From Patescibacteria group bacterium (GTDB taxonomy: Bacteria > Patescibacteriota > Microgenomatia > UBA8517): a stretch of 64,000 bases of DNA. Made by a program: the position numbers and the translations under genes. The first letter of the stretch is position 1; each line of letters begins with the position of its first letter. The DNA is taken from NCBI GenBank assembly GCA_036835125.1, contig DAITMO010000001.1, positions 319,508 to 383,507 of the forward strand. The letters run 5' to 3'. The notes below the pieces were generated by a model. The model was not told where the DNA came from. It was given only the letters and a program-made list of their open reading frames with translations, and ran no database searches. Below are positions 13,859 to 61,460 of this stretch, piece after piece.

Positions 13859-15352
13859 ATGAAGACAGATGGAGTCGAGCCAGGTTTGGATTCTACAGAC
13901 GAGATAAGTCTCGAGACTGTTAAGGCAAGAAGCATCAAAGGGGTTGTTGCTCTAACTGGAAGATATTTTGTTCTCTATGCAATTACCCTTGTTTCCCAGG
14001 GAATCTTGGGGGCACTTCTCACAACATCCCAATTTGGTATTTTTGGAGTAGTTTCTGCAATTGTTAACTTCTTAGTTTATTTTTCTGATATAGGGCTTGC
14101 TGCAGCATTAATTCAAAAGAAGGAGAAGATTGAAGCAGAAGACTTAAAAACTACTTTTACAGTTCAACAGATATTAGTTGCTGTTCTTCTTATTGGTACT
14201 TTTATGTTATCCCCCTGGATTAAAAGATTCTACGGACTTGATCAGAGTGCAATTTTTCTTCTTTATGCTTTGGGTGTTTCATTTTTGTTGTCTTCTTTAA
14301 AAACTATTCCTTCAGTTCTTTTGGAAAGGGGACTTAAATTTGAAAAACTTGCAATATCAAACATATTAGAGAGCATTGCATATAATATTTGTTTGGTTTT
14401 CTTTGCTTGGAAGGGTTTTGGAATAACAAGTTTTACAATAGCAGTATTGGTGCGGGGTGTTGTAGGGCTTGTTGTTCTTTATTTCTTCCAGCCATGGAAG
14501 CCTGCTTTGGCACTGTCTCGGAAATCTCTTTCAAAACTTCTTAAGTTTGGAATTCCATATCAGATAAATACTTTCATTGCGGTTCTTAAGGATGATGGAT
14601 TGACTTTGGTTCTTGGAAAAGTTATGGGTGTGTCAGCTCTTGGTATTTTAGTTTGGGCTCAGAAGTGGATACAAATTCCTTTAAGGGTCGTAATGGATAA
14701 TGTTACAAGGGTAATGTTTCCTGCTTTTTCCAGGATGCAGGATGATACAGAGAATTTAAAAAGAAGCGTTACCCGCTCAATTTTTTTTACAACAGTTTTG
14801 GTTTTTCCGGCAACCGTTGCAATAGTCCTCCTTTTTCCTGTTGTTACTAATATCATTCCGAAATATCAGCAGTGGTTACCCGCAATTCTTCCTTTAACAC
14901 TTCTATCTATTAATGTTCTATTTGCAGCGATTACTACACAGCTTACAAACCTTCTTAATGCAATTGGGAAAATTAAGATTACTTCAGCTCTTATGGTAAT
15001 GTGGACGGTCCTAACGTGGGTATTGGTCCCATATTTGGCAAAGAGGTTTGGTGCAACAGGCGCAGCAGCGGGTTATGCAGCCGTGGGAGCTTCATCCATA
15101 ATTGCAATATTTATTGTTAAAAAATATGTAAACTTCTCTCTAATTGATGGAGCCCTTAAACCCTTCTTTGCTTCTATTGTGATGGGGGTGACACTTTTGG
15201 TTTTAAGGCATTTCTTACCACAAAACCTAGCTTCTCTTGGAATATTGATTGTTATTGGCTTGACTACCTATGCTCTTTCTATCCTTGCCTTGGTTGGCGC
15301 CTCTTTAGTTGAAGATGTTAAAAAAGGACTTTCTGCAATCGTTAAAAAATAA
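13859..15352 (+). CDS. Wzx-like oligo/polysaccharide flippase (PST/MOP superfamily)
   Basis: About 497 aa and 12-14 TM helices. The overall pattern is typical of PST-family polysaccharide biosynthesis (Wzx) proteins. A good RBS (AAGGT) is present. Confidence 0.65.
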   Translation: MKTDGVEPGLDSTDEISLETVKARSIKGVVALTGRYFVLYAITLVSQGILGALLTTSQFGIFGVVSAIVNFLVYFSDIGLAAALIQKKEKIEAEDLKTTFTVQQILVAVLLIGTFMLSPWIKRFYGLDQSAIFLLYALGVSFLLSSLKTIPSVLLERGLKFEKLAISNILESIAYNICLVFFAWKGFGITSFTIAVLVRGVVGLVVLYFFQPWKPALALSRKSLSKLLKFGIPYQINTFIAVLKDDGLTLVLGKVMGVSALGILVWAQKWIQIPLRVVMDNVTRVMFPAFSRMQDDTENLKRSVTRSIFFTTVLVFPATVAIVLLFPVVTNIIPKYQQWLPAILPLTLLSINVLFAAITTQLTNLLNAIGKIKITSALMVMWTVLTWVLVPYLAKRFGATGAAAGYAAVGASSIIAIFIVKKYVNFSLIDGALKPFFASIVMGVTLLVLRHFLPQNLASLGILIVIGLTTYALSILALVGASLVEDVKKGLSAIVKK

Positions 15353-17042
15353 GTTTCTGCCAATTTTTATTATTTTGGTTGGGTCTGCCGTGTGGTCACT
15401 AACAATGGTCAGAAGCGGTCTTTGCTGGAATGAAGGATGTAGTGGCGGACTTGGATTTTGGGGAGCAAATGGACATGATGGCCTCTGGCACCTTTCTTTA
15501 ATTAACAATTTTGCAAACGGGAATTTTGGAAATCCAGTATTCGCAGGTTATCCTCTTCAAAATTATCACATTGGTTTTGATCTTTTGCTTTCTTGGGTTG
15601 TTAGATTAACTGGAGTTTCGGCAAGCGTTTTATATTTTCAAATTGTTCCACCGCTTTTGGCAGTGTTGGTAGGTGCTTTAGTTTATAAGTTTGTTTATCT
15701 TTGGAAGAAATCTAATTCTGCATCAGCTATTGCTATTTTCTTTGTTTATTTTGGTGGAAGTATGGGATGGATTGTTTCACTTTTAAGAAGTAGTACATGG
15801 GGAGGGGAGAGTATGTTTTGGTCGATGCAGTCAGTTTCCACATTAATCAACCCTCCTTTTGCTCTTTCTCTTGTTTTAATACTTCTTGGATTAATCTCTA
15901 TATTTAAATATCAGGAAAAGAAAAAGTTAATAAATATTATTCTTGCGATATTGTGTTTTGGGCTTTTAGCAGCAGTTAAAATATATGCGTCACTTCTTGT
16001 TCTTACAGCTCTTTTTGTTTCTGGGATTTATTCATTGGTTGTTAAGCGTAATCCGTTAATTAGCAGGGTGTTTATTGGAACTCTTATTGTCTCAATTTTG
16101 TTATATATTCCTTTGAATGGTTTTTCGGGAGGTAATCTTGTTACCTGGAAACCGTTCTGGTTTTTGGAATCAATGATGGCGCTTTCCGATAGGGTTGGCT
16201 GGCAAAAGTTTTATTCTGCAATGACCACTTATAGAATGGGAGGTGTTTGGGGAAAGGCAATAATTGCCTATACGGCAGCATTTCTGATATTTGTGATTGG
16301 CAACTTCGGAACAAGAATATTGGCTCTAAAATCTGTTTTTGGAAATGTTAGAAAAGTTTTTCAACTCACATGGCTGTCTGTTTTCCTAATGATTTTAATT
16401 TTGGCAGGAATTACTGTCCCAACATTTTTTGTTCAGAAAGGAACTGCTTGGAATACTATTCAATTTCTTTATTACTCTTTGTTCTTTACTGGAATTATTG
16501 CGGGGGTAGAAATAGAAGCTTTGATTAAGAGAAAAAGTGTTGTGATTAAATTGATTGTTGTAGGTTCTTTAATTTTGTTTACTATTCCGACAACTGTTGC
16601 AGCTCTTGAAAGCTATATGTCAATTGCCCCTCAATCTATACTTCCAGAGAAAGAAGCTGAAGCACTAAGTTTTCTTAACAAACAAGATAATGGAGTAGTG
16701 TTGACTTATCCATACATAAAAGGTGGCACATTGGAAAATGGGCCAACATCACTCTATCTTTATACAACCACAGCATATGTATCTGCATATTCAGGTAAGC
16801 CAGTATTTTTGGAAGATGAAATGAACTTGGGAATAATGCAGTATGATTTTGAAACGAGACGGGAATCTGTTGAGCAGTTTTTAGACACCTTAGATGAAAA
16901 AGAAGCCTATCAGTTTTTAAGAGACAACAATATAACCTATGTCTACTGGCTAAAGGACCAGCATGCAAGAGTCGGGGATAAACAGCTTGGACTTACCAAA
17001 ATATTTGATAATGGGGATGCTACAATTTATGTAGTAAATTGA
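15309..17042 (+). CDS. polytopic membrane protein, putative GT-C-like glycosyltransferase (inverted paralog of 25093..26955)
   Basis: Shares the motifs GANGHDGLWH...NP.FAG...Y...GGESMFW with the minus-strand gene at 25093..26955. Start is ambiguous (TTG at 15309, ATG at 15315) and overlaps the upstream flippase gene. Confidence 0.5.
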   Translation: MKMLKKDFLQSLKNKFLPIFIILVGSAVWSLTMVRSGLCWNEGCSGGLGFWGANGHDGLWHLSLINNFANGNFGNPVFAGYPLQNYHIGFDLLLSWVVRLTGVSASVLYFQIVPPLLAVLVGALVYKFVYLWKKSNSASAIAIFFVYFGGSMGWIVSLLRSSTWGGESMFWSMQSVSTLINPPFALSLVLILLGLISIFKYQEKKKLINIILAILCFGLLAAVKIYASLLVLTALFVSGIYSLVVKRNPLISRVFIGTLIVSILLYIPLNGFSGGNLVTWKPFWFLESMMALSDRVGWQKFYSAMTTYRMGGVWGKAIIAYTAAFLIFVIGNFGTRILALKSVFGNVRKVFQLTWLSVFLMILILAGITVPTFFVQKGTAWNTIQFLYYSLFFTGIIAGVEIEALIKRKSVVIKLIVVGSLILFTIPTTVAALESYMSIAPQSILPEKEAEALSFLNKQDNGVVLTYPYIKGGTLENGPTSLYLYTTTAYVSAYSGKPVFLEDEMNLGIMQYDFETRRESVEQFLDTLDEKEAYQFLRDNNITYVYWLKDQHARVGDKQLGLTKIFDNGDATIYVVN

Positions 17043-17075
17043 TATCTCTATTTAAAGGTAAATTAAGGTAAATTA

Positions 17076-18773
17076 ATGAAGAAACTTACTACATTATTTA
17101 AGAAAAAATGGGTTTGGGTTATACTGGTTATTGCTGCAACAATCCCCACTTTTACAAGTTTAATGAGACCAGGGTTTTTCCCGATGCAGGATGATCTTCA
17201 GGCTTTCAGAATTTACGAAATGGATAAATGCTTTTCCGATTTTCAAATTCCATGCCGTTGGGTACCTGATGCAGGATATAAGTATGGATATCCACAATTC
17301 AATTATTATCCTCCCAGTGTTTATTATCTCGGGGAGGCATTTCATAAACTAGGATTCCAATTTATAGATTCGGTAAAAATTGTTTTTGCATTAGGATACA
17401 TTCTATCTGCCTTAACAATGTTTCTTCTTGTGAGTGAAATATTTGGTAATTTCCCGGGATTTGTTTCAGGGGTTATTTATACATACGTTCCATATAAAGC
17501 AATGGAAGTTTATGTCAGGGGGGCTATGAGTGAGTTCTGGTCACTTGTTTTTTATCCTTTGATTTTTTGGGCAGTTTATAAACTTATTAAAACATTAAAG
17601 AAAAAGTATATTGCTGTGTTGGGAATATCCTTGGCGCTTCTTTTAACAACACACCTTCTTATGTCAATGATTTTTTCTTTGTCTGCAGTTGTATGGACCA
17701 TCTATTGGTTGGTCAAAGAGAAAAAGGTGAAAGAAATTGGTAAGGTGATTGCTGGGGTAATTCTTGGAATATGTTTGGCTGCATTCTTTGTACTGCCGGT
17801 TATATTTGAACAAAAATATGCCCATACGGAGACAATGACAATGGGATATTTTGGATATCTTCAGCATTTTGTAAATGTCTATAAAATGTTCTTATCCAGA
17901 GAATGGGGATTTGGTTCATCTGGTTTTCCAAATGAAGTATTAAATCTTTCAACTGGAATAATCCAGTGGATTTTTGGACTTATTACAGTCGGATTGGCAG
18001 GAATTCTTTTTATCAAGAGAAAAAAGAAAGAATATCTTTTCCTTACTTTGATACTGGGAGGACTGGAAATATTTACTCTTTTCATGATGCATGCAAAATC
18101 AACTTTTATTTGGAAATTGATACCAATTCTTGCTTGGCTGCAATTTCCCTGGAGATTTCTTACTGTTAGTATTTTCCTTTTGGCAATCTTGGCTGGTATC
18201 GGAATTTATTTAATTCCAAAGTTTAAAGTGTGGATTGGGATCATTGTTATGGTAATAGCAGTAGCACTTACAGGTTCATACTTCACTCCCAAAAGCTGGC
18301 TAGATATTAGCGATACCGATCATTTTTCGGGTGTGTCATGGCAGAAGAAATTAACTATTAGTATTTTTGATTATTTACCTATATATGCAAAACTTCCGCC
18401 AATTACAGAAGCACCAGACGTGCCAGAAGTATTAGATGGCATGGCAGTATTTATGGATTATAAAAAAGGAAGTAATTATCAGGTTGGAGATATTATTGCT
18501 CACGAAGACTCCACAATACGCCTGCCTCTTTTTGATTTCCCTGGAATGAAAGTTTTTGCAAATGGAGAAGTTATTGATCATTACAACAATGACTGCAGGG
18601 GTCAGGAGTTTTGTCTTGGTTTAATTACATTTAAATTGCCTGCTGGAACTTATCACCTGGAAACAAGGCTAACAGATACTCCAATTAGAGTTGTTGGTAA
18701 CTATTTATCTTTGTTTGGAGTAGTTACCGTGTGTTATCTTTTAATAAAGAAAGATGAAAAGAATTCTAAATAA
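17076..18773 (+). CDS. YfhO-like/PTPS-related polytopic membrane protein (GT-C-like), tandem paralog 1 of 3
   Basis: Conserved N-terminal block QDDLQAFRIYEMDKCFSDFQIPCRWVPDAGYKYGYPQFNYYPP and C-terminal beta-rich block (FDFPGMKVFANGEV). The protein is about 560 aa with many TM helices. Confidence 0.55.
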   Translation: MKKLTTLFKKKWVWVILVIAATIPTFTSLMRPGFFPMQDDLQAFRIYEMDKCFSDFQIPCRWVPDAGYKYGYPQFNYYPPSVYYLGEAFHKLGFQFIDSVKIVFALGYILSALTMFLLVSEIFGNFPGFVSGVIYTYVPYKAMEVYVRGAMSEFWSLVFYPLIFWAVYKLIKTLKKKYIAVLGISLALLLTTHLLMSMIFSLSAVVWTIYWLVKEKKVKEIGKVIAGVILGICLAAFFVLPVIFEQKYAHTETMTMGYFGYLQHFVNVYKMFLSREWGFGSSGFPNEVLNLSTGIIQWIFGLITVGLAGILFIKRKKKEYLFLTLILGGLEIFTLFMMHAKSTFIWKLIPILAWLQFPWRFLTVSIFLLAILAGIGIYLIPKFKVWIGIIVMVIAVALTGSYFTPKSWLDISDTDHFSGVSWQKKLTISIFDYLPIYAKLPPITEAPDVPEVLDGMAVFMDYKKGSNYQVGDIIAHEDSTIRLPLFDFPGMKVFANGEVIDHYNNDCRGQEFCLGLITFKLPAGTYHLETRLTDTPIRVVGNYLSLFGVVTVCYLLIKKDEKNSK

Positions 18774-20430
18774 ATATTGGCCTTTAATACTTGTATTTGC
18801 TTTAAGCTTCTTTGTTACATGGCCGCTTTTTAAGTATGGATATTTTTCTCACCAAGATAATTTGCAAGTTATTCGCATCTTTGAAATGAAAAAGTGTTTT
18901 TCTGATCTGCAGATTCCATGCCGCTGGGTTCCTGATATGGGGTGGGGAAACGGATTTCCACTGTTTAATTTTTATGGTGTCTCTCTTTATTATTTGGGTG
19001 CTTTATTTAGTTATATAGTAGGCTATATTGTGTCTTCAAAAATTATTTTCTTTTTGTCCCTGGTTTTGGGGAGCTTTGGAATATACCTATTGGCAAAAAG
19101 TCTTTGGGGAAAATATGCAGGTATGGCTTCAGCGATTCTATACATGTTTGCTCCCTATAAAGCATTGGATATCTATGTCAGGGGGGCGCTTGCAGAAAGC
19201 TTTGCCTTGGCTATCATTCCTTTTGTTTTTTACTTTGGCTACAAACTTATTGTTTCCCCAAAAAACAACAAGAAACAGAACAACAAATACGGGATATTGT
19301 TCTCGCTATCTTTATTTGTTTTTATGATAACCCACAATATTATGGTTTTGATATTTATTCCAATATTGGGACTTTGGATGCTTTATTGGTTGTATGTTGA
19401 GAAGTGGAAAAATATTAAAAATGTAGTTTTATATGTATTGTTTGGAATCGGAATGTCGTGCTTTTTTATACTTCCTGCATTTCTTGAGAAGGGGCTTGTA
19501 CAAACAGAATCTTTGCTCCGGTTTGAATTGGATTTCAGGGCTAACTACTTAAGAATTTATCAGTTGTTTTTTGACCGCGTCTGGGGTTATGGAACTTCTA
19601 TTCCGGGACCGGAAGGGGGAATGAACTTTCAAATTGGCTGGCCGCACTGGCTACTGGGACTAACTTCATTGGTGTTTATTTTTAATAAAAAAGTTACCAA
19701 AAAGATGAAAGTATTAATCTTGGGAATTATTGGAGCGTTTCTTTTCTCTATATTTATGACCCACAACAAATCTACATTTATTTGGGTTAATATTAGTCTT
19801 TTAAAGTATTTCCAGTTTCCCTGGAGGTTTTTATCCCTTTCGATATTTGCCGCCTCCCTTCTCGGAGGCTTCATAGTTTCAAACTTCAGGAGTAGGTGGC
19901 AGCTTTATCTTTCTGTTGTTGTTGTACTTCTATCTGTTTTGTTAAATTGGCAGTATTTTAAGCCTAAAGAATTCTACTCTATTAAAGACAGTGAACTACT
20001 TTCTGATGCATCATGGGATGAACAAAGGAAGGGAGCGCTTCTTGATTATCTGCCTAAAACTGCCTTGGAACCAAGAGAGGAAGCGCCAGTAGAGCCATTA
20101 ATAGTTTCTGGAAATGCAAAGACAGAGAGCTTTGTGAATAATTCCAACAAATGGAAATTGGACATTGAAGTTACCGAAAGTTCGGTCATTGAAGTACCTG
20201 TTTTTTATTTCCCAAATTGGCGGGTATATGTTGACGGGAATAAATATCCTTTTACCTATGACAACATCTTGGGAAGAATTTCGTTTACTTTGGAGCCTGG
20301 TAGGTATTCTATTGATGGAAAGTTTGAGAATACACCGGTAAGAACACTGGGAAACACCCTGTCGCTTATAAGTATCATTGGGCTTGCTGTTTATACAATT
20401 TATGGAAAAAATAAGAAAATATCTAAATAA
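18754..20430 (+). CDS. YfhO-like/PTPS-related polytopic membrane protein (GT-C-like), tandem paralog 2 of 3
   Basis: HQDNLQVIRIFEMKKCFSDLQIPCRWVPDMGWGNGFPLFNFY and C-terminal YFPNWRVYVDGNKYPF are homologous blocks to 17076. The start overlaps the upstream gene by 20 nt. Confidence 0.55.
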   Translation: MKRILNKYWPLILVFALSFFVTWPLFKYGYFSHQDNLQVIRIFEMKKCFSDLQIPCRWVPDMGWGNGFPLFNFYGVSLYYLGALFSYIVGYIVSSKIIFFLSLVLGSFGIYLLAKSLWGKYAGMASAILYMFAPYKALDIYVRGALAESFALAIIPFVFYFGYKLIVSPKNNKKQNNKYGILFSLSLFVFMITHNIMVLIFIPILGLWMLYWLYVEKWKNIKNVVLYVLFGIGMSCFFILPAFLEKGLVQTESLLRFELDFRANYLRIYQLFFDRVWGYGTSIPGPEGGMNFQIGWPHWLLGLTSLVFIFNKKVTKKMKVLILGIIGAFLFSIFMTHNKSTFIWVNISLLKYFQFPWRFLSLSIFAASLLGGFIVSNFRSRWQLYLSVVVVLLSVLLNWQYFKPKEFYSIKDSELLSDASWDEQRKGALLDYLPKTALEPREEAPVEPLIVSGNAKTESFVNNSNKWKLDIEVTESSVIEVPVFYFPNWRVYVDGNKYPFTYDNILGRISFTLEPGRYSIDGKFENTPVRTLGNTLSLISIIGLAVYTIYGKNKKISK

Positions 20431-22069
20431 ATACATATTTTTAATAATTCTTTTGCTGGCGATACCGGCAGTGCGGTATCTATTTGTTTATGGTTTTTTT
20501 GGAGTCTCGGATGATCTTCATATTGGCTGGCTTTATGAAATGGATAGGGTTATTAAGATGCTTCAACTTCCTCCAAGATATGTTCCTGATTTAAGTTTTG
20601 GATTTGGATATCCGCTATTCAATTTTGTCTATCCGCTTCCTTTTTATTTTGGTGAGGTATTTCATCTTTTGGGGTTTTCGTTGGTAAACAGCGTAAAAAT
20701 AGTCTTTGGATTGTCAATTCCTCTTTCAATGTTTTTTATGTACAAATTCTTAAAAGAGTTTTTGAATGAAGAGTTTTCACTTGCCGGATCTGTTTTATAC
20801 GTATATATGCCGTATAGGGCAACTGAGCTTTTTGTTAGAGGAACAATTGGGGAGATTGTTGCCTTTGTATTTCTGCCCTTAATTGCATTATCTATTGTCA
20901 ATTTAACAAAAGAGAAAATAGAAAATAAGTGGATTGGAATATTGGCATTATCGGTTGGAGGTTTGATTCTTTCTCACAACATAATGGCATATATGTTTGT
21001 GCCGTTTGTGCTGCTACTTCTAGTTTTGAGAATTGTATTTGTTGTTAAAAACAGAAAGGAATCTATTGTTAAAAGTATTAGTGGTTTAATATTAGGTTTG
21101 ATAGTATCTTCATACTTTTGGTTTCCTGCAATCAGTGAGAGTTTACTTGTGAAGTATGACACGGTATTTAATTTTTATGACCATTTCCCGACGCTTAAGC
21201 AATTCATAACTCCATTCTTTGGTTATGGTGCTTCAGTTCCCGGTCCATATGACACAATGTCTTTTTATGTTGGATTAACCGGGATCTTTGTAGTTGCTGC
21301 CGGGTCCCTTCTTTTTTTAATAAAGTTTAAGAAGTTTTCAAAAACCGAAAAGGTTTATATTACTTGGGGCATTACTATTCTTTTAATTAGTATGTTCATG
21401 ATGAACTTTAGATCTGCATTTCTTTGGAGAAATTTGCCACTTCTTCCTTACTTTCAATTCCCCTGGAGGTTTTTGTCAATGGTTGCTTTTGCTTCCCCAA
21501 TAATCCTACTAGGATTAACTAAAAATAAGTTTGGTAATGCTATTTCATTTGTGGTTCTTTTGACGGCGATTGTTTTAAACTTTAATTATTTTAAGACAAG
21601 TGAGTATTTGGGTAGAGGGGACTATTATTATATTAATAGGTATATACCGGTTCCCATGGCTTCAGAAGAATACAAAAAGACATCTGAGGAATATTTGCGT
21701 CTTCCTCTTGGCACTGAGGAAAGACCGGAATCTAATATGCCGAGGGCATATTCAGAGATACCAGGCATTGTTGAGGTGGTTGAGATAAATCCGCTTGATG
21801 CAAAGATTATTACAGATAGTAATGAGGGTTTCATTTTAAATTACAGCAAGTATTATTTTCCTGGATGGTTGGCTAAAATAGATGGTGAAAATACAGAAAT
21901 TAGTGCTGGAAAACCATATGGTCAGATTACAGTACAGGTTCCATCAGGCAGACACATGGTTGAAATTTTCTATCGTGAGACACCAAAAAGGTTAATATTT
22001 GATGCAATATCACTTGTGGGTATTGGAATATCTGTTTATTATATTTTCAGAAGAGAGAAAGAAAAGTAA
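20402..22069 (+). CDS. YfhO-like/PTPS-related polytopic membrane protein (GT-C-like), tandem paralog 3 of 3
   Basis: SDDLHIGWLYEMDRVIKMLQLPPRYVPDLSFGFGYPLFNFVYP and C-terminal YFPGWLAKIDGENTEI. The ATG at 20402 (MEKIRKYLNKYIF) is chosen by analogy with the N-terminus of paralog 2; the ORF extends to 20378. Confidence 0.5.
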   Translation: MEKIRKYLNKYIFLIILLLAIPAVRYLFVYGFFGVSDDLHIGWLYEMDRVIKMLQLPPRYVPDLSFGFGYPLFNFVYPLPFYFGEVFHLLGFSLVNSVKIVFGLSIPLSMFFMYKFLKEFLNEEFSLAGSVLYVYMPYRATELFVRGTIGEIVAFVFLPLIALSIVNLTKEKIENKWIGILALSVGGLILSHNIMAYMFVPFVLLLLVLRIVFVVKNRKESIVKSISGLILGLIVSSYFWFPAISESLLVKYDTVFNFYDHFPTLKQFITPFFGYGASVPGPYDTMSFYVGLTGIFVVAAGSLLFLIKFKKFSKTEKVYITWGITILLISMFMMNFRSAFLWRNLPLLPYFQFPWRFLSMVAFASPIILLGLTKNKFGNAISFVVLLTAIVLNFNYFKTSEYLGRGDYYYINRYIPVPMASEEYKKTSEEYLRLPLGTEERPESNMPRAYSEIPGIVEVVEINPLDAKIITDSNEGFILNYSKYYFPGWLAKIDGENTEISAGKPYGQITVQVPSGRHMVEIFYRETPKRLIFDAISLVGIGISVYYIFRREKEK

Positions 22070-22075
22070 AAAGAA

Positions 22076-23326
22076 ATGAAGAAAATTTTAGCAATAGTAC
22101 TAACAGTTGGGATACTCCTTCGGGTTTTCCTTTCAATGACTACATACCATGCAGATGTTGCGGCTTTAGGATTTGCAGGGAAAATAATATCGCAAGGAAA
22201 TATATCTAACTTTTATGACTTTTTAGGGAATTTGCCAGAGGATGATCCATATCTTGCAGTTTATCCAAAAGACCTTTTTATCTATCCTCCTACCATATAC
22301 TTTCTAAATGGATTGTTTGCTAAGTTGACTAATTGGATGATTTCTCCTGAAGTTCTTAATAATTTCACTCTTAATTTTACTTCTACATTAGGAAATTCTC
22401 AGCTAAATTTGTATCTATTGCTTCTGAAGCTACCCTATTTTGCATTTGATATTGCTTCAGTATTTGTTTTAATGGCGCTTTTTAAGGATGAAAAGAAAAA
22501 GATGTTAGCTTTTATTGTTTGGATTTTTAATCCAGTGAGTATTTATGCAACATATATGATGGGACAGTTTGATATTATTCCGACATTCTTTGTAATTCTT
22601 GCAATGTATCTGGCAATGAAGAGAGAAAAAATATACCTAGCCTCCTTAATGTTGGGGATTGGAATGTCTTTTAAGATTTATCCGCTACTATTCTTAATTC
22701 CTTTGGCTTTAACAAAAGATAAATGGATAGATAGAATCAAAGTGTTTGTTCTTGGTATCCTGCCCTATATTCTTTCAGTTCTTCCTTTCATTTTCTCAAA
22801 AGGGTTTAGGGCCTCAGCTCTTGTTGCCGGGCAAACTACAAAAAGTTTATATGCGATCTTACCGATTTCAGGCGGAGAATCGATAATGATATATTTGGCG
22901 GCAATAATTTTTGTATATATTGTGTTTCTATTCTCTGAAAATAAACTAGAAAACTTGTGGCAGAAATTTTTCATAATCTCATCATTGTTTTTCATTTTTA
23001 CTCATTATCATCCACAATGGTTTACCTGGATAACTTCGTTTATTATTATTGATTTGGTTAAAAATGGGGCTAAAAGATGGCCTATTATTCTGTTGGCGCT
23101 AGTTAGCTGGCTTGGTCTTGTTACATTTTTTGATCCTGGATTAACTACTTGGCTATTTGCTCCATTGGTACCGAATCTTTGGGGTAAACCTGGGCTCTGG
23201 GAACTTGTTGGAGTGAATCTTGATATCAATATTGCAAGAAGTTATTTGCAAACTGTTTTTGCAGCGGTAGGCTTTTATTATATCTACAACTATTTTCCCA
23301 GGAAAAACGAGAATATAGCAAAATGA
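22076..23326 (+). CDS. polytopic membrane protein, DUF2029/GT87-like (GT-C-like mannosyltransferase family), tandem paralog 1 of 2
   Basis: KLPYFAFDIASVFVLM...WIFNPVSIY...GMSFKIYPLLFLIPLAL matches the conserved pattern of the DUF2029/PimE-like family. About 10 TM helices. Confidence 0.45.
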   Translation: MKKILAIVLTVGILLRVFLSMTTYHADVAALGFAGKIISQGNISNFYDFLGNLPEDDPYLAVYPKDLFIYPPTIYFLNGLFAKLTNWMISPEVLNNFTLNFTSTLGNSQLNLYLLLLKLPYFAFDIASVFVLMALFKDEKKKMLAFIVWIFNPVSIYATYMMGQFDIIPTFFVILAMYLAMKREKIYLASLMLGIGMSFKIYPLLFLIPLALTKDKWIDRIKVFVLGILPYILSVLPFIFSKGFRASALVAGQTTKSLYAILPISGGESIMIYLAAIIFVYIVFLFSENKLENLWQKFFIISSLFFIFTHYHPQWFTWITSFIIIDLVKNGAKRWPIILLALVSWLGLVTFFDPGLTTWLFAPLVPNLWGKPGLWELVGVNLDINIARSYLQTVFAAVGFYYIYNYFPRKNENIAK

Positions 23327-24534
23327 AAAAACTAATTGTTACGGCAATAATTTTAAGGCTACTTATTTCAATGTTTATATTTCATCCAGATATTAAAACA
23401 TTCAATTTTCAAGCTTCATTTTTAAGGCATGGGGTTTTTAATATTTATTCCTATCTTATAGACAACAAGGAAACACTTCCTTTAAAGGAAAACTTTGTTT
23501 ATTTCCCTCTAACTTATCTTACGCTTGGGTCATACCAGGCAGTTGTTGCACCTTTAATGGGTAACGACTTTGATTCGTGGCTTTCCAATGCTGATTCGTT
23601 TGGAATTGTTACGGATTCGAATATTTTTAAATATATGCTTGCTTTAAAGCTTCCATATCTGGTTTTGGATATGGTGGTTGCTTTTATGCTTTTGAAGTAT
23701 TTTGAAGACAAAAAGGTAGGGAAGAGAGCATTTATCTTCTGGTTATTTAATCCTTTTACAATTTTTATTATCTATGCTTTTGCGAATGTAGACATATATC
23801 CAGTTGTGTTGGTTTTATCCTCCATTCTTTTGATGAAAAAAGGGAAGTCAGGGTTTGCGGCATTAATGCTTGGACTGGCGGCAGGCTTTAAAATTTATCC
23901 TCTGCTTTTTGTGCCGTTCCTTTTTGTATCAGGTAAGTCTTGGAAAGAAAAATTAAAACTGGCAACTATCCCTTTTGGAATATTTGTGGCAGTATCTCTT
24001 CCTTTTCTTTCATTAGCGTTTTTGGAATCAACTCTCATTTCAGGGCTTACTACAAGACTTTTTAATCCAGGGATAAATGTTGGTTTTGGAGAATCAATTA
24101 TTGTGGGATTGATGCTTCTTTCGGCTCTATTCTTTTATAGTCTTTTGGTTGATAAAAAACCAAATATGTTCAATTACTTTTTGACAACACTCCTTGTCAT
24201 ATTTGCATTCTCCCATTTCCATGTTGCATGGCTTTTGTGGATTGCTCCCTTTTTGGTAATTGTTGCAGCTAAAGAATCCAAGCTTTCAGGGATTGTCTTT
24301 ATGCTTAGTATTGCGGCAATTTTAATACCTCTTCTTTATCAGGATAGATCTATGTCTATCTCGCTTTTTAGAATTTATTCAACCTGGTTTGATTTGCTGC
24401 CGACTCCGTTTACTGCTATTCAGAAGTTCTTTGATCCTTATAGCTTACAGAGTATTTTGCATTCACTATTTGCGGGAGGAGCCGGAATATTGGTGTATAA
24501 ATTATTTAGGGAGAATAGTTTAGAAAAAAAATAA
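23323..24534 (+). CDS. polytopic membrane protein, DUF2029/GT87-like, tandem paralog 2 of 2
   Basis: KLPYLVLDMVVAFMLL...WLFNPFTIF...GFKIYPLLFVPFLFV. ATGA overlap with paralog 1. Confidence 0.45.
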   Translation: MKKLIVTAIILRLLISMFIFHPDIKTFNFQASFLRHGVFNIYSYLIDNKETLPLKENFVYFPLTYLTLGSYQAVVAPLMGNDFDSWLSNADSFGIVTDSNIFKYMLALKLPYLVLDMVVAFMLLKYFEDKKVGKRAFIFWLFNPFTIFIIYAFANVDIYPVVLVLSSILLMKKGKSGFAALMLGLAAGFKIYPLLFVPFLFVSGKSWKEKLKLATIPFGIFVAVSLPFLSLAFLESTLISGLTTRLFNPGINVGFGESIIVGLMLLSALFFYSLLVDKKPNMFNYFLTTLLVIFAFSHFHVAWLLWIAPFLVIVAAKESKLSGIVFMLSIAAILIPLLYQDRSMSISLFRIYSTWFDLLPTPFTAIQKFFDPYSLQSILHSLFAGGAGILVYKLFRENSLEKK

Positions 24535-24536
24535 AG

Positions 24537-25142
24537 ATGAAAAAAATGATTTGGCTGACAATAGTCTTTGTATTAGGACTGGTGTTTGTTGTTCCGGTTA
24601 TTCTCTCCATGGGTTTAAAAATGATTCCTATTAATACTCAACCTGGATTAAATTATGATGTAAGGCTTTCAATTTATAGAGACAGGTTGTTTCTCCAGAA
24701 ATTTACCGCCAAGGAAGACAATTTGACTGCAATTGGAATGTCTATCAGAAATCCCAATTTGAAAAATAAAGCGGAAATATATTTCAACTTGATGAACTTG
24801 GATGGAAGCATTATACGAAGCGTTGCTATAAGCGGCATGAATCTTGAAGATGGTTCTTTTACCAAGTTTGTTTTTGATCCGATTCCCGATTCATTTGGAA
24901 AGGAATATTTGTTCACCCTATCTTCTCCTGGGGCAGGACCGGAGGAAACAATAGAACTATTTATTATTGGAACTGATGATCCGTCTGGAATAACAGAATA
25001 TTCATACATGGGTGAATCTTTCTCTGGAGGAACTCCGATTGTTCAATATGTAAAGCCGATAAGCAAGGTAAATACAGTTAAAGAAGTTTATACTAATTTG
25101 ATTTCCAGACTTCTGCCGCATCATTCTCAAAAATCTTATTAA
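24537..25142 (+). CDS. hypothetical membrane-anchored extracytoplasmic protein
   Basis: N-terminal signal anchor (IWLTIVFVLGLVFVVPVIL) followed by a roughly 170 aa domain with no recognisable motif. Its 3' end overlaps the convergent gene 25093..26955 by 50 nt. Confidence 0.4.
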   Translation: MKKMIWLTIVFVLGLVFVVPVILSMGLKMIPINTQPGLNYDVRLSIYRDRLFLQKFTAKEDNLTAIGMSIRNPNLKNKAEIYFNLMNLDGSIIRSVAISGMNLEDGSFTKFVFDPIPDSFGKEYLFTLSSPGAGPEETIELFIIGTDDPSGITEYSYMGESFSGGTPIVQYVKPISKVNTVKEVYTNLISRLLPHHSQKSY

Positions 25143-26955
25143 GTCCATATTCTTCTGGAGTGACTGCTGGCGTTAGTTCTTTTGGATAATAAATAATATT
25201 TGCGTGAGTTTCTTCAAATGCTTTTTGGACAGTTTGTGTTTCACTTCCTTCAAAGATGGTCTTTTTAATAGTGTCTCTTTCGCGCCAGCTGTAGCCCATT
25301 ATGTCAGCTTGTTCATAGTCTTCAAAATATGTTCTTCGACTTGAGAAAGCTGCAACATATGAAGTATCAAACCAGTCCCAGATATTTGGTGTGACTTGTT
25401 TTAAATCTAGGTATTGATTGTAGGGTGGTGTAACAATAACAATATCTTTCGTGGTGTTTTTCTTGATATAGTTTAGAGCTCCAAGTTCACCTTCTGAAAT
25501 TCTTGCAAATGCAGGTCTTTTATAGAATTCATAGATAAGCCCTATCTGGGTTGGAATCATGATGGCGATAAGGGTAAGAGCAAATACTATTCGGATCGGG
25601 GTATGTTTTATTTTTGAAAGCAATTTAGAAACAGATATTCCTGCAAGTATTCCAAAGAACAATACAAAATACTGCAGAAACTGGCTGGTGTTGCTGGCAA
25701 CCCCTTTTTGGAGGAACAAAAGCGGTAGAACCAAGGAAATTACGATAGCTGATTTGATAAATACATTTGTCTTTATATATTCTTTAAGACCAATGAATCT
25801 TACTCCAAGATTTCCAAAGAAGAAGATAAGGAGTCCTATTCCCTCATACTCAAGAATTCTTAATATAGATTTAATTCCGCCGCGGTCAAGATAAAATTGA
25901 CGTCTCAACTCAAGGTCTATCCAATCAAGGCGGGAGTTTTCCACTATCATTGTTCGTATATACCACCAGGGTTGGAATATTAAAAATGCTGTAGATCCTG
26001 AAGTATTTGGAATGTAAAGGGCAGCAGCTAATATTCCACTAATGCCAGTGATTATAAGTGTGTCAATTTTCTTTTCTTTAATTAGTTGCCAAAGTCCTGC
26101 AATTCCAAGAGCTCCTAGGGCAACAACTCCTGCATATACTTTAAAGCTTGCCAGGGTGCCAAAAAGGACTACACAGATTACTGAATATATTATTTTTGCC
26201 TTCTTTTCTTTTTGTTCCCTAAATGAAAGATAGAAATAAAGGCCAGTAAGTATTAAGAAGTCTGAGGCAATCTGAGGAGGGTTGCCTGCAGCACTTTGCG
26301 GTTGTGTTGCCCAGAATATGCTTTCTCCTCCTATTGTTTTATTTTTGATAAAAGTGACAATATATCCAAAACTTCCTGCAAAATATGTAAATATTGTTGC
26401 CCAAATAGGTGCATATTGGTTTTTACTCAGTTTTTTAGTTAGATAGTAAGCAGATACTCCCAAGAATAGGGAACCTATAAATGGAAATACTCTGAAGTAC
26501 AGGGTTACATCGGACACTGGAAGATACTTACCAATCATTGCCGGCAGAATATCACTAAAGAAGTGGTAGTTGATGAGCCTTTCTCCAGCAAAGGATGGAT
26601 TTTGGAATGGCCACCCTCGTCTTATCTCGTCCATTAACGCAATGTGCCATGCTCCATCGTGTCCGTTTGCACTCCAGAAAAGCATATCTCCACTCTTTGA
26701 GAATATTCCACTTGGGGAAATGATTGCCATTTGTCCAACAATTCCAAGGATAAAGACAAGAAGTGTTATAGCTGTCCGCTTATTCCATTTGGTGTTTGTC
26801 TTTTCTATTGCTTTTGCAATTGGTTTTCCTGCAAAAAGCATTAGGACAAGAATTGTGGGGACGATTAAGACAGGAATTTTTAAGAGTATGAATATATAGG
26901 AAAGGAGTGTCAGGCAAGAAAAAGCAGCAATTGAGAACATTAGTATTCCTTCCAT
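25093..26955 (-). CDS. polytopic membrane protein, putative GT-C-like (inverted paralog of 15309..17042)
   Basis: SANGHDGAWHIAL...NPSFAGERLINYHFF...GGESIFWATQ blocks are shared with 15309..17042. It is 620 aa with many TM helices and is the only minus-strand gene between 15 kb and 43 kb. Confidence 0.5.
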   Translation of the reverse strand: MEGILMFSIAAFSCLTLLSYIFILLKIPVLIVPTILVLMLFAGKPIAKAIEKTNTKWNKRTAITLLVFILGIVGQMAIISPSGIFSKSGDMLFWSANGHDGAWHIALMDEIRRGWPFQNPSFAGERLINYHFFSDILPAMIGKYLPVSDVTLYFRVFPFIGSLFLGVSAYYLTKKLSKNQYAPIWATIFTYFAGSFGYIVTFIKNKTIGGESIFWATQPQSAAGNPPQIASDFLILTGLYFYLSFREQKEKKAKIIYSVICVVLFGTLASFKVYAGVVALGALGIAGLWQLIKEKKIDTLIITGISGILAAALYIPNTSGSTAFLIFQPWWYIRTMIVENSRLDWIDLELRRQFYLDRGGIKSILRILEYEGIGLLIFFFGNLGVRFIGLKEYIKTNVFIKSAIVISLVLPLLFLQKGVASNTSQFLQYFVLFFGILAGISVSKLLSKIKHTPIRIVFALTLIAIMIPTQIGLIYEFYKRPAFARISEGELGALNYIKKNTTKDIVIVTPPYNQYLDLKQVTPNIWDWFDTSYVAAFSSRRTYFEDYEQADIMGYSWRERDTIKKTIFEGSETQTVQKAFEETHANIIYYPKELTPAVTPEEYGLNKIFENDAAEVWKSN

Positions 26956-26982
26956 ACGTAGATTATATATAATAGTATAAGT

Positions 26983-28398
26983 ATGGGAAAGAAGACGTGG
27001 CTGATTCTGCTTGGAATTGTTCTTTTGGGGTTGGTTATCAGACTTATTAAAATTGGATCTCTTCCTCTTTACGGTGATGAGCTGACAATGGTATATGACA
27101 CCTACTCAATCAGCAAAACTGGAATGGATGCTACTGGAGAAAAGCTTCCTTTAACCTTTAAGATGGGAGCGGGTCGTCCTGGTGGATACATTTATTTTTC
27201 TGTTCCTTTTGTTGCCGCCTTTGGTCCTAATGTTTGGGGGGAGAGATCTCTGTCTCTTCTTTCGGGGGTTGGAATAATTATCCTCATATATTTCCTGGGA
27301 AAGAAATTGTTTGGTGAAAAGGTCGGGTTAACTGCAAGCATTCTTACTGCAATTTCTCCATGGGATATTTATTTAAGCAGGGGAGGATTTGAAGCACATT
27401 TTGCGCTGTTTCTGGCTCTTTTTGGGATAACAATGTTTTTTTACAGGAGATATATTTTTTGGGCAATTTTCTGGGGATTAGCACTTTTTACTTATCCGAC
27501 TTTCAAGTTAACTCTACCTATTATTTTTGTACTTTTAACTTTAGTACAGGGAGTCGCAAAATCATTAAAAGACAAAAAGTATATTGCAGGAACTTTACTT
27601 CTTTTGGTTTTTGGAGGAATTATCGCTACTCAAACTTTTACTGCGGGAAGCGAAGATAGATTTCTTTCCCAGAATGTTCTATCTGATGAAAAAACCAAAA
27701 ACAATCTGATTCAGGTGGTGAGTACAGAAAGAAATACCTCTATTCTTCCAAGTTTCTTAAAACCAGTTTTTATAAATAGAAAAATAGAATATGGAAAGAT
27801 TATACTTGATAATTATGTGGCCAATATCTCCCCACAGTTTCTCTTTTTGAGGGGGGACGGGAATCCCAGACATAATCCTGGAGAAATGGGAATGCTCTAT
27901 TTGGCAGAACTACCAATACTTTTAGTCTCCATTTTTCTTTTATGGAAGGAAGACAAGAAGAAGTTCACTATTCTTTTTGGTTGGATTTTGATAGTACCTC
28001 TTGCAACAATGTTAATGGGACAAACTCATGCTTTAAGAAATGGCTTTATGCTTCCTCCTTTAATTCTTTTGACTGCTTTTACACTTTCAAAGATGTCTAA
28101 AAAATATGTTAAGTTATTTGGTATTCTTGTTGGAATTCAGTTGGTTTATATTTTAGTGCGTCTTTATACAGTTGTTCCTGCTAAATTTGCAGACTTCTGG
28201 TCAGCTCCTGCAAAAGAGGCAGCTCTTATTGCAATAGAGGAGAGTAAGAATGGACAAAAAGTTACTTTGGATGTTACAAAAATAGACAATATTGAATATG
28301 CATATGAGGTATATGCAAAGGTTGACCCAAAAGAAGTTATTACCCAGAGCGGTAGTTTCCCCAAAGTTTATGGCAATGTCACAATCACTGATAAATAA
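26983..28398 (+). CDS. GT39/PMT_2 (ArnT-like) membrane glycosyltransferase
   Basis: DE loop motif LPLYGDELTMVYDTYSISKTG...LPLTF, polytopic, C-terminal soluble domain. Confidence 0.6.
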   Translation: MGKKTWLILLGIVLLGLVIRLIKIGSLPLYGDELTMVYDTYSISKTGMDATGEKLPLTFKMGAGRPGGYIYFSVPFVAAFGPNVWGERSLSLLSGVGIIILIYFLGKKLFGEKVGLTASILTAISPWDIYLSRGGFEAHFALFLALFGITMFFYRRYIFWAIFWGLALFTYPTFKLTLPIIFVLLTLVQGVAKSLKDKKYIAGTLLLLVFGGIIATQTFTAGSEDRFLSQNVLSDEKTKNNLIQVVSTERNTSILPSFLKPVFINRKIEYGKIILDNYVANISPQFLFLRGDGNPRHNPGEMGMLYLAELPILLVSIFLLWKEDKKKFTILFGWILIVPLATMLMGQTHALRNGFMLPPLILLTAFTLSKMSKKYVKLFGILVGIQLVYILVRLYTVVPAKFADFWSAPAKEAALIAIEESKNGQKVTLDVTKIDNIEYAYEVYAKVDPKEVITQSGSFPKVYGNVTITDK

Positions 28399-28408
28399 AT
28401 TCAAAGTC

Positions 28409-29878
28409 ATGACACATGGCAAGGCTTTTAAGATTATTTTATTTACTGTGGTTCTTATTTTTACGTTTATTTTAAGAGCTCATAACTATGAAAAAACTCC
28501 TACACCATCTCATTTAGACGAACAGCTCTATGCTCTTTCTGGAATTAACTTGATAGAAACAGGAGTTCCGGTTTCCTGGTCTACACTGGATTATCCGGAG
28601 AGTGCTGTTGTTTTTGATGGGAAAATCTCCTATAAAGGTGGAGAACCTTCTGCGTCGGTTAAGCTTTTTAAGCCGTGGCTTGATGAACCGCCTCTTTTCT
28701 CGTTACTGGTTGGAGAATCTGCACATTTATTTGGTGCAGACAGGAATGATTTTATTCCCTCTTCATTTATTAGATTCCCAATTGTGATAATTTCTACACT
28801 AACCTCAATTCTTATATTTCTTATTGCCAAAAAGGTTAGTGGTTACAGGATCGGAATTCTATCAATGCTTATTTATGGAACCGAACCGGTTATGGTTTTT
28901 GCGTCCCGCAGTGCAATGCCCGAGACTTTGATTACCTTTTTGTATTTGCTGGTAGTTTATTTATTAATTTATTTTATCAAATCCCCCAAATCTAGATACT
29001 TGATTCCAATCCCTATACTTGCTGGAATTGCAGGACTTGCGAAGCCAACCGGGTATTTTATTTTAGGAATTGCGGCTTACCTTGTTATTGCGAAATTGGT
29101 TGAAAATAAAACTAGTTGGAAGAAGATATCCATGACTGTTGGATATTTGATATTAGGAATTGTGCCTTTTGTTATTTTCTATATTTGGTATGGAAATCAT
29201 TTTGATCCAGAAATATTTAAAAGGATTATTTCTATTCAAGGTTTTAGGCCTGTGGGTTTTGAAAACTTGGCATGGTTTTTTATAACTCCAAGTTTTTCCA
29301 CTGTGGTTTTCAAAAGCAGTTGGTATGTGTTTTTGCTTCTTGCCAGTGCATTTTATATTTTCCAGCCAAAAGATAAATTGCAAAAAATTATTAGTTTGTC
29401 ATTTGTCTACTGGCTATGTGTGGTAATGGTTTCTTCAGGGGAGGTGGATCTTCTTTCCTGGTATAGATTTCCAGCACTTCCTTTTATGGCAATAATGGGT
29501 GCATGGGGAATAGAATATTTAGTTAAGAGGTCTGACTTTTTTGCCTCATTTTTAGCTGTTGGATTATTCTTAGGACCTCGTACACTTCTGGTTAATGCTT
29601 TTAGGCCAAACGTGATGCAGGGAACTTTTAGAGCAACAATACTAACACTTCTTGCACCATCTCTTCTCAATTCAGTTTTCAACAAAAAGGTATTCAAGGT
29701 TATCTCCAGAGCAGTCATTATTGGAGTGGTGGTGGTTGGGATGTGGTGGAATATCAAATACGTATACAATGCTTATGAAGTCGAATGCCAAAACAAAATT
29801 TGCCCGATGGTGCCAACAACTACCTTATCAAGTATTCACTTTCCTCTTGTCTGGAGGCTGTTTGTTCTTAGCGAGTAA
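28409..29878 (+). CDS. GT39/PMT_2-like membrane glycosyltransferase
   Basis: ATG at 28409 directly after the upstream stop. HLDEQLYALSGINLIETG DE-type loop and many TM helices. The ORF-track start at 28292 would overlap the upstream gene by about 100 nt. Confidence 0.5.
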   Translation: MTHGKAFKIILFTVVLIFTFILRAHNYEKTPTPSHLDEQLYALSGINLIETGVPVSWSTLDYPESAVVFDGKISYKGGEPSASVKLFKPWLDEPPLFSLLVGESAHLFGADRNDFIPSSFIRFPIVIISTLTSILIFLIAKKVSGYRIGILSMLIYGTEPVMVFASRSAMPETLITFLYLLVVYLLIYFIKSPKSRYLIPIPILAGIAGLAKPTGYFILGIAAYLVIAKLVENKTSWKKISMTVGYLILGIVPFVIFYIWYGNHFDPEIFKRIISIQGFRPVGFENLAWFFITPSFSTVVFKSSWYVFLLLASAFYIFQPKDKLQKIISLSFVYWLCVVMVSSGEVDLLSWYRFPALPFMAIMGAWGIEYLVKRSDFFASFLAVGLFLGPRTLLVNAFRPNVMQGTFRATILTLLAPSLLNSVFNKKVFKVISRAVIIGVVVVGMWWNIKYVYNAYEVECQNKICPMVPTTTLSSIHFPLVWRLFVLSE

Positions 29879-29897
29879 AGCTGGTAACATTTAGTAT

Positions 29898-59421: not shown

Positions 59422-59432
59422 CCAATAGATTT

Positions 59433-61443: not shown

Positions 61444-61460
61444 CTTCCATTACTTTTTCA

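Follow-up and report, generated by a model that had tools for sequence, protein, structure and literature searches.

Inverted, anciently diverged GT-C-type paralogs in a patescibacterial glycan-assembly island: probable members of an unnamed glycosyltransferase family

A 64,000-nucleotide stretch of a Patescibacteria group bacterium genome (assembly GCA_036835125.1, contig DAITMO010000001.1, positions 319,508 to 383,507; hereafter the window) carries two homologous genes, designated A and B, which lie in opposite orientation on either side of tandem arrays of membrane-protein genes (Table 1). An earlier note on this DNA proposed that the pair could permit inversion of the segment between them, or could record an ancient inverted duplication. 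It is probable, if short of certain, that the two genes are paralogs that diverged long ago within an uncharacterised GT-C glycosyltransferase family and form part of a glycan-assembly island, with A linked to a flippase, B linked to a small gene designated S, the two serving non-redundant steps, and the orientation of the pair being fixed.

Both open reading frames (ORFs) were confirmed. In a BLASTP alignment of 545 residues the two proteins are 31% identical, with 51% positives (E 9e-78), which makes them clear paralogs, as had been claimed. The alignment spans residues 45–577 of A, from loop 1 to the last residue. It takes in the extracytoplasmic loops and a C-terminal soluble domain of about 140 amino acids (aa) beyond the transmembrane (TM) helices, so the similarity is not confined to TM regions; such a confinement is what the earlier note had named as grounds for dropping its proposal. 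No further family copy was found in the window by tblastn. Of the sequence blocks listed as common, NP.FAG and GGES.FW were confirmed (NPVFAG and GGESMFW in A, NPSFAG and GGESIFW in B). The block GANGHDG.WH was found with a different first residue in the two proteins (GANGHDGLWH in A, SANGHDGAWH in B), and INYH.F is exact in B only (INYHFF), the common part with QNYHIGF of A being NYH.

The ORF map also bore out the description of B as the sole minus-strand gene of the stretch; from 1521 to 43095, moreover, no other non-nested ORF on the minus strand reaches 120 aa. The tandem arrays (17076..24534) do lie between A and B, together with gene S, which had been left unmentioned. The start of A is ambiguous: the ORF opens with TTG at 15309, and an identical database protein (P0001) starts with ATG at 15315 (575 aa). 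B would comprise 615 aa if started at ATG 26940, the start used by its 615-aa orthologues.

An exhaustive profile search returned 1,797 representatives of the family (50% identity clusters) at E<=1e-3 and 989 at E<=1e-30. The named sources were Woesebacteria, Daviesbacteria, Microgenomates, Patescibacteria and a few Parcubacteria/Paceibacterota; the family is nearly confined to the Patescibacteria, Microgenomates group. Its signature reads [GS]ANGHDGxWH / NYH / GGES / QKGxxxNTxQF. Residues H56 and D57 of A were invariant in 53 aligned sequences, as were G98, H99, D100, W103 and H104 in the B family, and D57 is a candidate catalytic or metal-binding carboxylate.

No match to A was obtained in Pfam or NCBIfam at E<=0.1, and B gave one faint match to DUF6077 below threshold (E 0.007, 15.7 bits vs a cutoff of 27). 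Searches of PDB sequences by phmmer or with a profile returned nothing for the family. When the 53 members were scanned singly, a faint PMT_2 match was found in one, and none exceeded the curated threshold for PMT_2, YfhO, GT87, DUF6798 or DUF6077. The earlier view that no named family fits therefore stands, since no curated Pfam or NCBIfam threshold was reached by A or B. Hidden Markov model (HMM) searches thus gave no family name, and structure searches gave the GT-C fold class with an architecture like that of oligosaccharyltransferases (OSTs). On the basis of the models, A and B would represent an unnamed, Patescibacteria-centred GT-C family, a candidate for a new glycosyltransferase family in CAZy.

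AlphaFold2 (AF2) models were obtained for A (pLDDT 87.7, pTM 0.90) and B (pLDDT 77, pTM 0.81). Foldseek searches against the PDB at E<1e-3 returned GT-C enzymes only, 19 for A and 22 for B. The leading matches were STT3 of yeast and human, AglB of archaea and PglB of bacteria, with E from 7.5e-10 to 3e-5 and TMq of 0.49–0.56, the top of the list being STT3, AglB, PglB and DPY19 for A and STT3A, AglB, STT3 and PglB for B. These were followed by DPY19, AftA and AftD, with the addition of ArnT for B. The C-terminal domain alone matched the C-terminal globular domain of AglB-S2 (3vu0) with a probability of 0.99–1.0. As modelled, both proteins clearly adopt a GT-C fold with OST-like architecture.

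For A, 11 TM helices were predicted, with a C-terminal alpha/beta domain on the extracytoplasmic side, and 13 TM helices for B, with two extra ones at the N-terminus relative to A. The N-terminus of both proteins is predicted to lie inside. In the topology derived from the model helices, the positive-inside rule is obeyed, the cytoplasmic loops containing 16 K/R vs 1 D/E. Of 54 invariant residues, 31 fall in extracytoplasmic loops or the C-terminal domain, and the outward invariant polar residues include H56, D57, H61, N85, H87, E167, R295, Q376 and N382. D57 belongs to the loop 38–104, predicted outside.

The alternative that survives best is that A and/or B are true OST-type enzymes, a divergent sister of GT66, performing en-bloc transfer of a Wzx-flipped oligosaccharide linked to polyprenyl diphosphate (PP) to a protein or cell-wall acceptor. 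This is unlikely, and several observations speak for it. STT3, AglB and PglB (GT66) are the best structural matches of both models, with E-values four to five orders of magnitude better than that of ArnT for B and far better than those of PMT for both. The likeness extends to the GT-C fold, the N-terminus inside, 11–13 TM helices (13 in B, as in OSTs), a long first external loop with an invariant Asp, and the C-terminal extracytoplasmic alpha/beta domain matching that of AglB-S2. In the models, a GT66-like architecture of a GT-C core followed by a C-terminal alpha/beta globular domain is thus present. A adjoins and overlaps a gene for a Wzx-like flippase, and an A-like domain is fused to such a flippase in the protein P0280. 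Pfam scans of the window revealed no confident Wzy or WaaL, only an EpsG-like membrane protein below threshold (47667..49238; E 8e-6, 25.7 bits vs a cutoff of 30.1).

The sequence comparisons point the other way. PglB references consisted of C-terminal fragments and 62 full-length genes from metagenome loci. The motif WWDYG or WWD was found in none of 114 family members and in all 62 of the PglB sequences. STT3-family HMMs (PF02516 and the PglB/AglB domains) gave no match for A or B at E<=0.1, nor for the 53 members at E<=1. The family therefore fails to show two defining sequence marks of GT66, the family HMM and WWDYG, and carries a signature of its own. No TIxE-like glutamate was found conserved in both A and B. 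Structural alignments to STT3, AglB and PglB show 10–14% identity, and the C-terminal domain of A and B is much smaller than theirs.

In profile–profile alignment with the PglB C-terminal fragments, hhalign gave insignificant probabilities of 3% and 0.25%, the family stretch 'VVLT-----YPY' being placed on PglB 'YVLTWWDYGYP', with the motif as a gap. Global hhalign against full-length PglB gave nothing. A permissive local alignment ran through 503 columns in collinear order, with a score of 41.1, P 6e-4 and a probability of 28%, and in this low-confidence alignment NGHD57G falls on PglB N-x-N-D-G-Y and GGE167 beside YYDTDML. Two of these placements, NGHD57G and the 'VVLT' strand ahead of the WWDYG position, are among the points in favour of an OST. 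The highest score was reached with the PMT_2-type family of the window (P3; 48.0, probability 67%), where GHD57G aligns with TGkDE and GGE167S with SFES, also at low confidence, so that D57 and E167 fall on conserved acidic positions. Controls gave 28–35 for other GT-C families (Y2 34.5), 17.5 for the flippase and 19–29 for reversed profiles, and PglB itself scored 34–52 against PMT_2-type families. Since the PMT_2 score exceeds that of PglB and both lie above the negative controls, what the sequences show is a general GT-C signal without OST specificity. On these scores (PglB 41.1 and PMT_2 48.0, controls 17–29), a particular kinship with OSTs was rejected as far as sequence is concerned. The OST reading is further weakened by the fact that MOP flippases may also serve donors linked to polyprenyl monophosphate (P), and by the fact that no phosphoglycosyltransferase was seen in the window.

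In a bolder form of this alternative, the family would be a Patescibacteria-specific OST sister lineage lacking the WWDYG sequon clamp, either lost or never possessed. A would then take a PP-oligosaccharide delivered by the flippase, to which it is sometimes fused, and pass it on en bloc to an acceptor without a sequon, for example the cell wall or a protein of the S-layer or pilin kind, helped in many lineages by an N-terminal DUF3863-like carbohydrate-active domain. This proposal appears doubtful; if true, bacteria would have a further, new class of transferase or ligase for en-bloc glycan transfer, in organisms for which Pfam gave no confident Wzy or WaaL and only the EpsG-like match below threshold.

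Two other groups of GT-C enzymes resemble the A/B family. ArnT and the PMT_2-type enzymes (GT83/GT39-like) belong to the same fold class, GT-C_A in the scheme of Alexander and Locher as quoted in PMC10920833. They give the highest profile score, occur in the same island, and have acidic residues of loops 1 and 2 that align with those of A and B. However, the structural match of ArnT is much weaker, with E 1e-4 for B and no place among the hits at E<=1e-3 for A, and no BLAST similarity at E<=1e-3 was detected between A or B and the PMT_2 genes of the window. DPY19 (7zlh, 7zli, 7zlg), the eukaryotic C-mannosyltransferase acting on Trp in thrombospondin repeats, is the second-best structural neighbour (E 2e-7 to 7e-6, TMq 0.39–0.54), but shares neither sequence similarity nor a common motif with A and B.

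A role of A and B in transport or as structural proteins of the membrane, in place of an enzymatic one, is very improbable. They are polytopic membrane proteins without family annotation, and the earlier note had listed a well-known transporter as an identity that would undo its proposal. The fold scores reject this identity: GT-C enzymes matched with TM-scores of 0.47–0.56 and probability 1.0, whereas ClC, MFS and ABC transporters reached TM-scores of at most 0.15 and probabilities of at most 0.35. Moreover, the invariant polar residues lie in extracytoplasmic loops and not along a transmembrane path, and about 16 further GT-C genes lie around the pair.

The gene neighbourhood ties A to the flippase gene, whose 3' end (stop) overlaps the start of A. 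The order flippase then A is kept in Woesebacteria-type and Daviesbacteria-type loci, that is, in two candidate phyla, and one protein of 1639 aa (P0280) is a fusion of a flippase (51% identical to that of the window), a soluble domain and an A-like domain. The overlap, the conserved order and the fusion together suggest that A is functionally coupled to the flippase.

A-clade proteins outside the sub-lineage of the window (P0242, P0246, P0258, P0263 and others; loci L039–L067, e.g., L050 6411–7553) are mostly 1000–1160 aa long, with a signal peptide followed by a conserved soluble N-terminal domain of about 400–550 aa. This domain carries the motifs NPVRG, ATWLLR, FFEVTP, YYPKSVGAWWID and VADQYSTD, and gave only a faint match to DUF3863 and PDB 3lm3. 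It was searched for in the window and found to be absent.

B is associated with S, for which no Pfam match was found even at E<=1. The convergent S–B pair was observed in about 45 loci and is present in nearly all Woesebacteria-type loci, and the two genes overlap by 44–50 nucleotides (nt) in 28 related loci and by 0–29 nt in more distant ones (loci L001–L048). The conserved tail of S (...SRLLxxxSQKSx) appears to equal the antisense reading of the B C-terminus (...IFENxEVEVWK), and the last ten or so residues of S may thus be a by-product of the antisense end of B. On its other side, B diverges from the first PMT_2 gene, P1, across the short gap listed in Table 1, which would be 42 nt long if B starts at the ATG of the 615-aa form. 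This gap contains the near-palindromic stretch TATATATAAT. It also holds the best minus-strand promoter-like match, TTCCCA-16-TATAAT (26989->26962, 10/12); this is a consensus match only and was not used as evidence, nor was the promoter and terminator scan as a whole, which returned fewer promoter-like sites than shuffles did. The 1.9 kb of antisense B interrupts the plus-strand operon, and read-through would yield antisense RNA to B.

A and B are accordingly pictured, from the models and the gene context, as putative integral membrane enzymes. Their active site would be extracytoplasmic, formed by loop 1 ([GS]ANGHDGxWH, NYH), loop 2 (GGES), later loops (R295, QKGxxxNTxQF) and the C-terminal alpha/beta domain. 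A would consume a lipid-linked glycan or sugar exported by the adjoining Wzx-like flippase, and B, with the membrane-anchored S, would catalyse a distinct step on the membrane's outer face. The two steps are likely non-redundant, as both orthologous groups are kept side by side across the lineage. The opposite strand of B would be a lineage-wide, fixed trait of gene order that probably gives B its own promoter. The adjoining flippase and the many GT2 genes of the island are contextual hints at a polyprenyl-P- or polyprenyl-PP-linked donor, which could be either a PP-oligosaccharide, used en bloc as in OSTs, or a P-monosaccharide; donor types by GT-C family are summarised in PMC10920833.

By analogy, this scheme may be compared with the three-component systems GtrA/B/C and PPPRS + MATE flippase + GT136 (PMC11127046). 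There, a lipid-linked donor made in the cytoplasm is flipped and used by a GT-C enzyme with a C-terminal extracytoplasmic domain, and a flippase of the MOP/MATE superfamily adjoins the GT-C gene; in the same work, such a flippase serves a P-monosaccharide GT-C system. In contrast, the flippase of the window is of the Polysacc_synt_3 (Wzx-like) type, its GT-C partner is of another, unnamed family, and neither A nor B could be matched with a donor synthase of its own.

The proposal that A and B act as an inversion substrate was examined at the DNA level by blastn (word size 7) of A against the reverse complement of B, and by comparing the longest common word with those of 50 shuffles. The best match was 62% identity over 286 nt, and the longest exact word was 10 nt, within the 9–13 nt of the shuffles; no near-identical stretch was present. 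An inverted-repeat scan found no repeat of at least 18 nt joining A and B beyond chance-level short matches, and Pfam scans of the window revealed no recombinase or invertase gene.

The orientation of the segment was then compared among 60 species-level loci collected with the B-family profile and annotated by BLAST against the window proteins. In all of the approximately 45 Woesebacteria/Microgenomates-type loci, B (43–66% identical) was the only reversed gene, and the interior genes run with both outer flanks. The bracketed segment was inverted in none of the 60 loci, nor in additional metagenome contigs. Contigs from two samples, 97.2% identical to the window at the nucleotide level, gave a single collinear alignment of 11,885 nt over 15093–26977.

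Given the lack of a DNA-level repeat, the single orientation in relatives and the lack of a recombinase, the idea that the inverted pair is a recombination switch is refuted as far as assemblies allow. It is hence extremely improbable that A and B serve as recombination arms flipping the 8-kb segment with the YfhO-like and GT87-like arrays, which would make a surface glycan phase-variable. The geometry of homologous genes inverted around a segment fits, and surface-glycan loci are classic targets of phase variation. Inversion would, however, yield chimeric A/B proteins from parents only 31% identical. With shufflons and the capsule promoter inversions of Bacteroides, the window shares only this geometry of inverted homologs flanking a surface-glycan segment, and unlike them it lacks near-identical inverted repeats, a recombinase and an alternative orientation in relatives.

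The orthologues of each gene are far closer to it than A and B are to each other. Across many metagenome-assembled genomes (MAGs), A orthologues are 47–77% identical (among those listed) and B orthologues 56–92%, and A vs B stays at about 30%; across Woesebacteria, the orthologues of either gene are 55–90% conserved. When 114 family members of the collected loci were placed in a neighbour-joining tree, an A clade separated from a clade that splits into B proper and B'. A-clade genes lie almost always directly downstream of a Wzx-like flippase gene. B proper is found on the opposite strand, convergent with S and adjoining the first PMT_2 gene, and B orthologues of 43–92% identity were always on the strand opposite to their neighbours. 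Daviesbacteria-type loci show the order flippase > A-like > B' > PMT_2 on a single strand, so that the adjacency of B and P1 is divergent in Woesebacteria and co-directional (B-like copies) in Daviesbacteria. A-like, B' and B occur together in a few genomes, and in other Woesebacteria the A-clade gene is placed between the members of the GT87 pair, or none is present within 10 kb.

The bracket formed by A and B is thus specific to a sub-lineage, and what is conserved is the flippase–A adjacency, the convergent S–B pair and the B–PMT_2 adjacency. Synteny and tree suggest that a single gene, B, is reversed, a state fixed throughout Woesebacteria. The duplication itself, as read from a simple distance tree, would be old. 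The alternative offered by the earlier note, an ancient inverted duplication, was therefore right as to age, whereas an inverted duplication of a segment is not supported, the copies of Daviesbacteria being tandem and co-directional. The paralog sets of the island (A/B, Y1–3, G1–2, P1–5) show 26–37% identity within sets, among them the YfhO-like genes between A and B (29–37%) and the GT87-like pair (30%), and this common level points to old duplications as the origin of the whole island. A recent origin of the pair in this genome by segmental inverted duplication, for which the inverted position of the paralogs within 10 kb might speak, has next to no probability left, given 31% protein identity, the lack of DNA similarity, orthologues of each copy 55–92% identical in dozens of genomes, and separate A and B/B' clades that include Daviesbacteria.

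Some variation was noted among the loci. Close relatives (L001, L002, L007, L010–L016) carry two to three YfhO-like and one to two GT87-like copies between fixed bracket genes, and a strain-level relative (L069) has the 3+2 arrangement of the window. In B proper, an invariant W-x-W-x-D occurs in the C-terminal domain (residues 526–530 of B in the window, IWDWFD), WDW[FY]D being present in 37 of 69 B-labelled sequences, and the A clade has LYLYT at this place; the motif may be a subfamily-specific acceptor-binding feature. Many MAGs with the typical locus (L009, L011, L013, L016, L017 and others) are titled 'uncultured Gammaproteobacteria bacterium' (binchicken/SRP co-assemblies) and one 'Clostridia bacterium', titles that look like placeholder or wrong taxonomic labels.

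Several points weigh against the reading of A and B as a flippase-linked and an S-linked GT-C enzyme of fixed orientation. The fold assignment rests on predicted structures, and the model of B is of low confidence at residues 194–225 and 317–378. By standard criteria, no characterised GT-C family shows significant homology in sequence, the hhalign probabilities being 3–67%. In the single scans, faint DUF6798 matches appeared in 19 of the 53 members (best E 0.0018). The adjacency of a flippase does not tell PP-oligosaccharide from P-monosaccharide donors (cf. PMC11127046), and the Pfam scans of the window showed no initiating phosphoglycosyltransferase (Bac_transf, Glycos_transf_4). Assemblies give the majority orientation only, so a rare inversion in the population is compatible with the contigs. 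A literature search on GT-C enzymes of Woesebacteria and the candidate phyla radiation (CPR), on OSTs and on DUF6798 returned no relevant paper.

CPR/Patescibacteria depend on contact with host cells, and how they build their cell surface is almost unknown. The glycan-assembly island of the window exceeds 60 kb and holds about 18 genes of the GT-C class; the A/B family, with two or three conserved paralogs per genome, is absent from Pfam and NCBIfam. Its OST-like GT-C fold, together with the tie to a flippase, makes it a candidate for the step that consumes flipped lipid-linked glycans in Patescibacteria, and the family is a reasonable target for CPR glycobiology.

Table 1. Features of the A/B region, with positions in the window, strand and basis of assignment.
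Feature	Position	Strand	Basis
Flippase, Wzx-like, MOP superfamily (Polysacc_synt_3)	13859..15352	+	Pfam PF13440, E 1e-56
Gene A, 577 aa, predicted GT-C-fold membrane protein, unnamed family	15309..17042	+	ORF map, AF2, Foldseek
GANGHDGLWH signature of A, extracytoplasmic loop 1	15462..15491	+	Translation
Three tandem YfhO/PTPS_related-like GT-C paralogs, 565/558/563 aa	17076..22069	+	PF10131, PF13231, weak to moderate
Two tandem GT87/PIG-M-like GT-C paralogs, 416/403 aa	22076..24534	+	PF09594, PF05007
Gene S, 201 aa, N-terminal TM helix, no family match	24537..25142	+	Pfam scan
Gene B, 620 aa, paralog of A	25093..26955	-	ORF map, BLASTP, AF2
SANGHDGAWH signature of B, loop 1	26644..26673	-	Translation
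Convergent 3'-3' overlap of S and B, 50 nt	25093..25142	.	ORF coordinates
AT-rich 27-nt gap between divergent starts of B and next PMT_2 gene	26956..26982	.	Sequence
P1, first gene of downstream PMT_2-type GT-C array (26983..34506)	26983..28398	+	PF13231

According to the Pfam scans, the whole window is a glycan-assembly island. About 12 GT2 and 3 GT4 genes were found, together with GT-C genes of the PMT_2 type (about 8), YfhO-like (4), GT87-like (2) and PIG-V-like (1) kinds. Further genes encode the Wzx-like flippase, an MFS transporter, epimerases, methyltransferases and an acetyltransferase-like protein, and genes of the nonulosonic-acid type are also present (a cytidylyltransferase, a DegT aminotransferase and a polysialyltransferase-like protein). 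From 1521 to 43095, about 40 consecutive plus-strand genes follow each other with tiny or negative gaps, B being the sole exception, and essentially all of them are glycan-related. In the PMT_2-type array, the ORF 28292..29878 (TTG start) overlaps the preceding gene by 107 nt, and its true start probably lies further downstream.

Two genes with Fic/DOC domains were noted on the minus strand (210..1304 and 44317..45294), the second also having a RhuM domain. The latter stands at the start of a stretch of low GC content (0.28–0.32 at about 44–53 kb vs about 0.35 elsewhere), which contains several genes without a Pfam match and the weak EpsG-like protein; this part may vary between genomes or have been acquired. 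Towards the 3' end, the interval 57329..62543 of the island encodes a polysialyltransferase-like protein (PF07388), a CMP-sugar cytidylyltransferase (CTP_transf_3), a DegT-type aminotransferase and an APH-like kinase, a set that suggests a pathway for nonulosonic acid or a similar unusual sugar.

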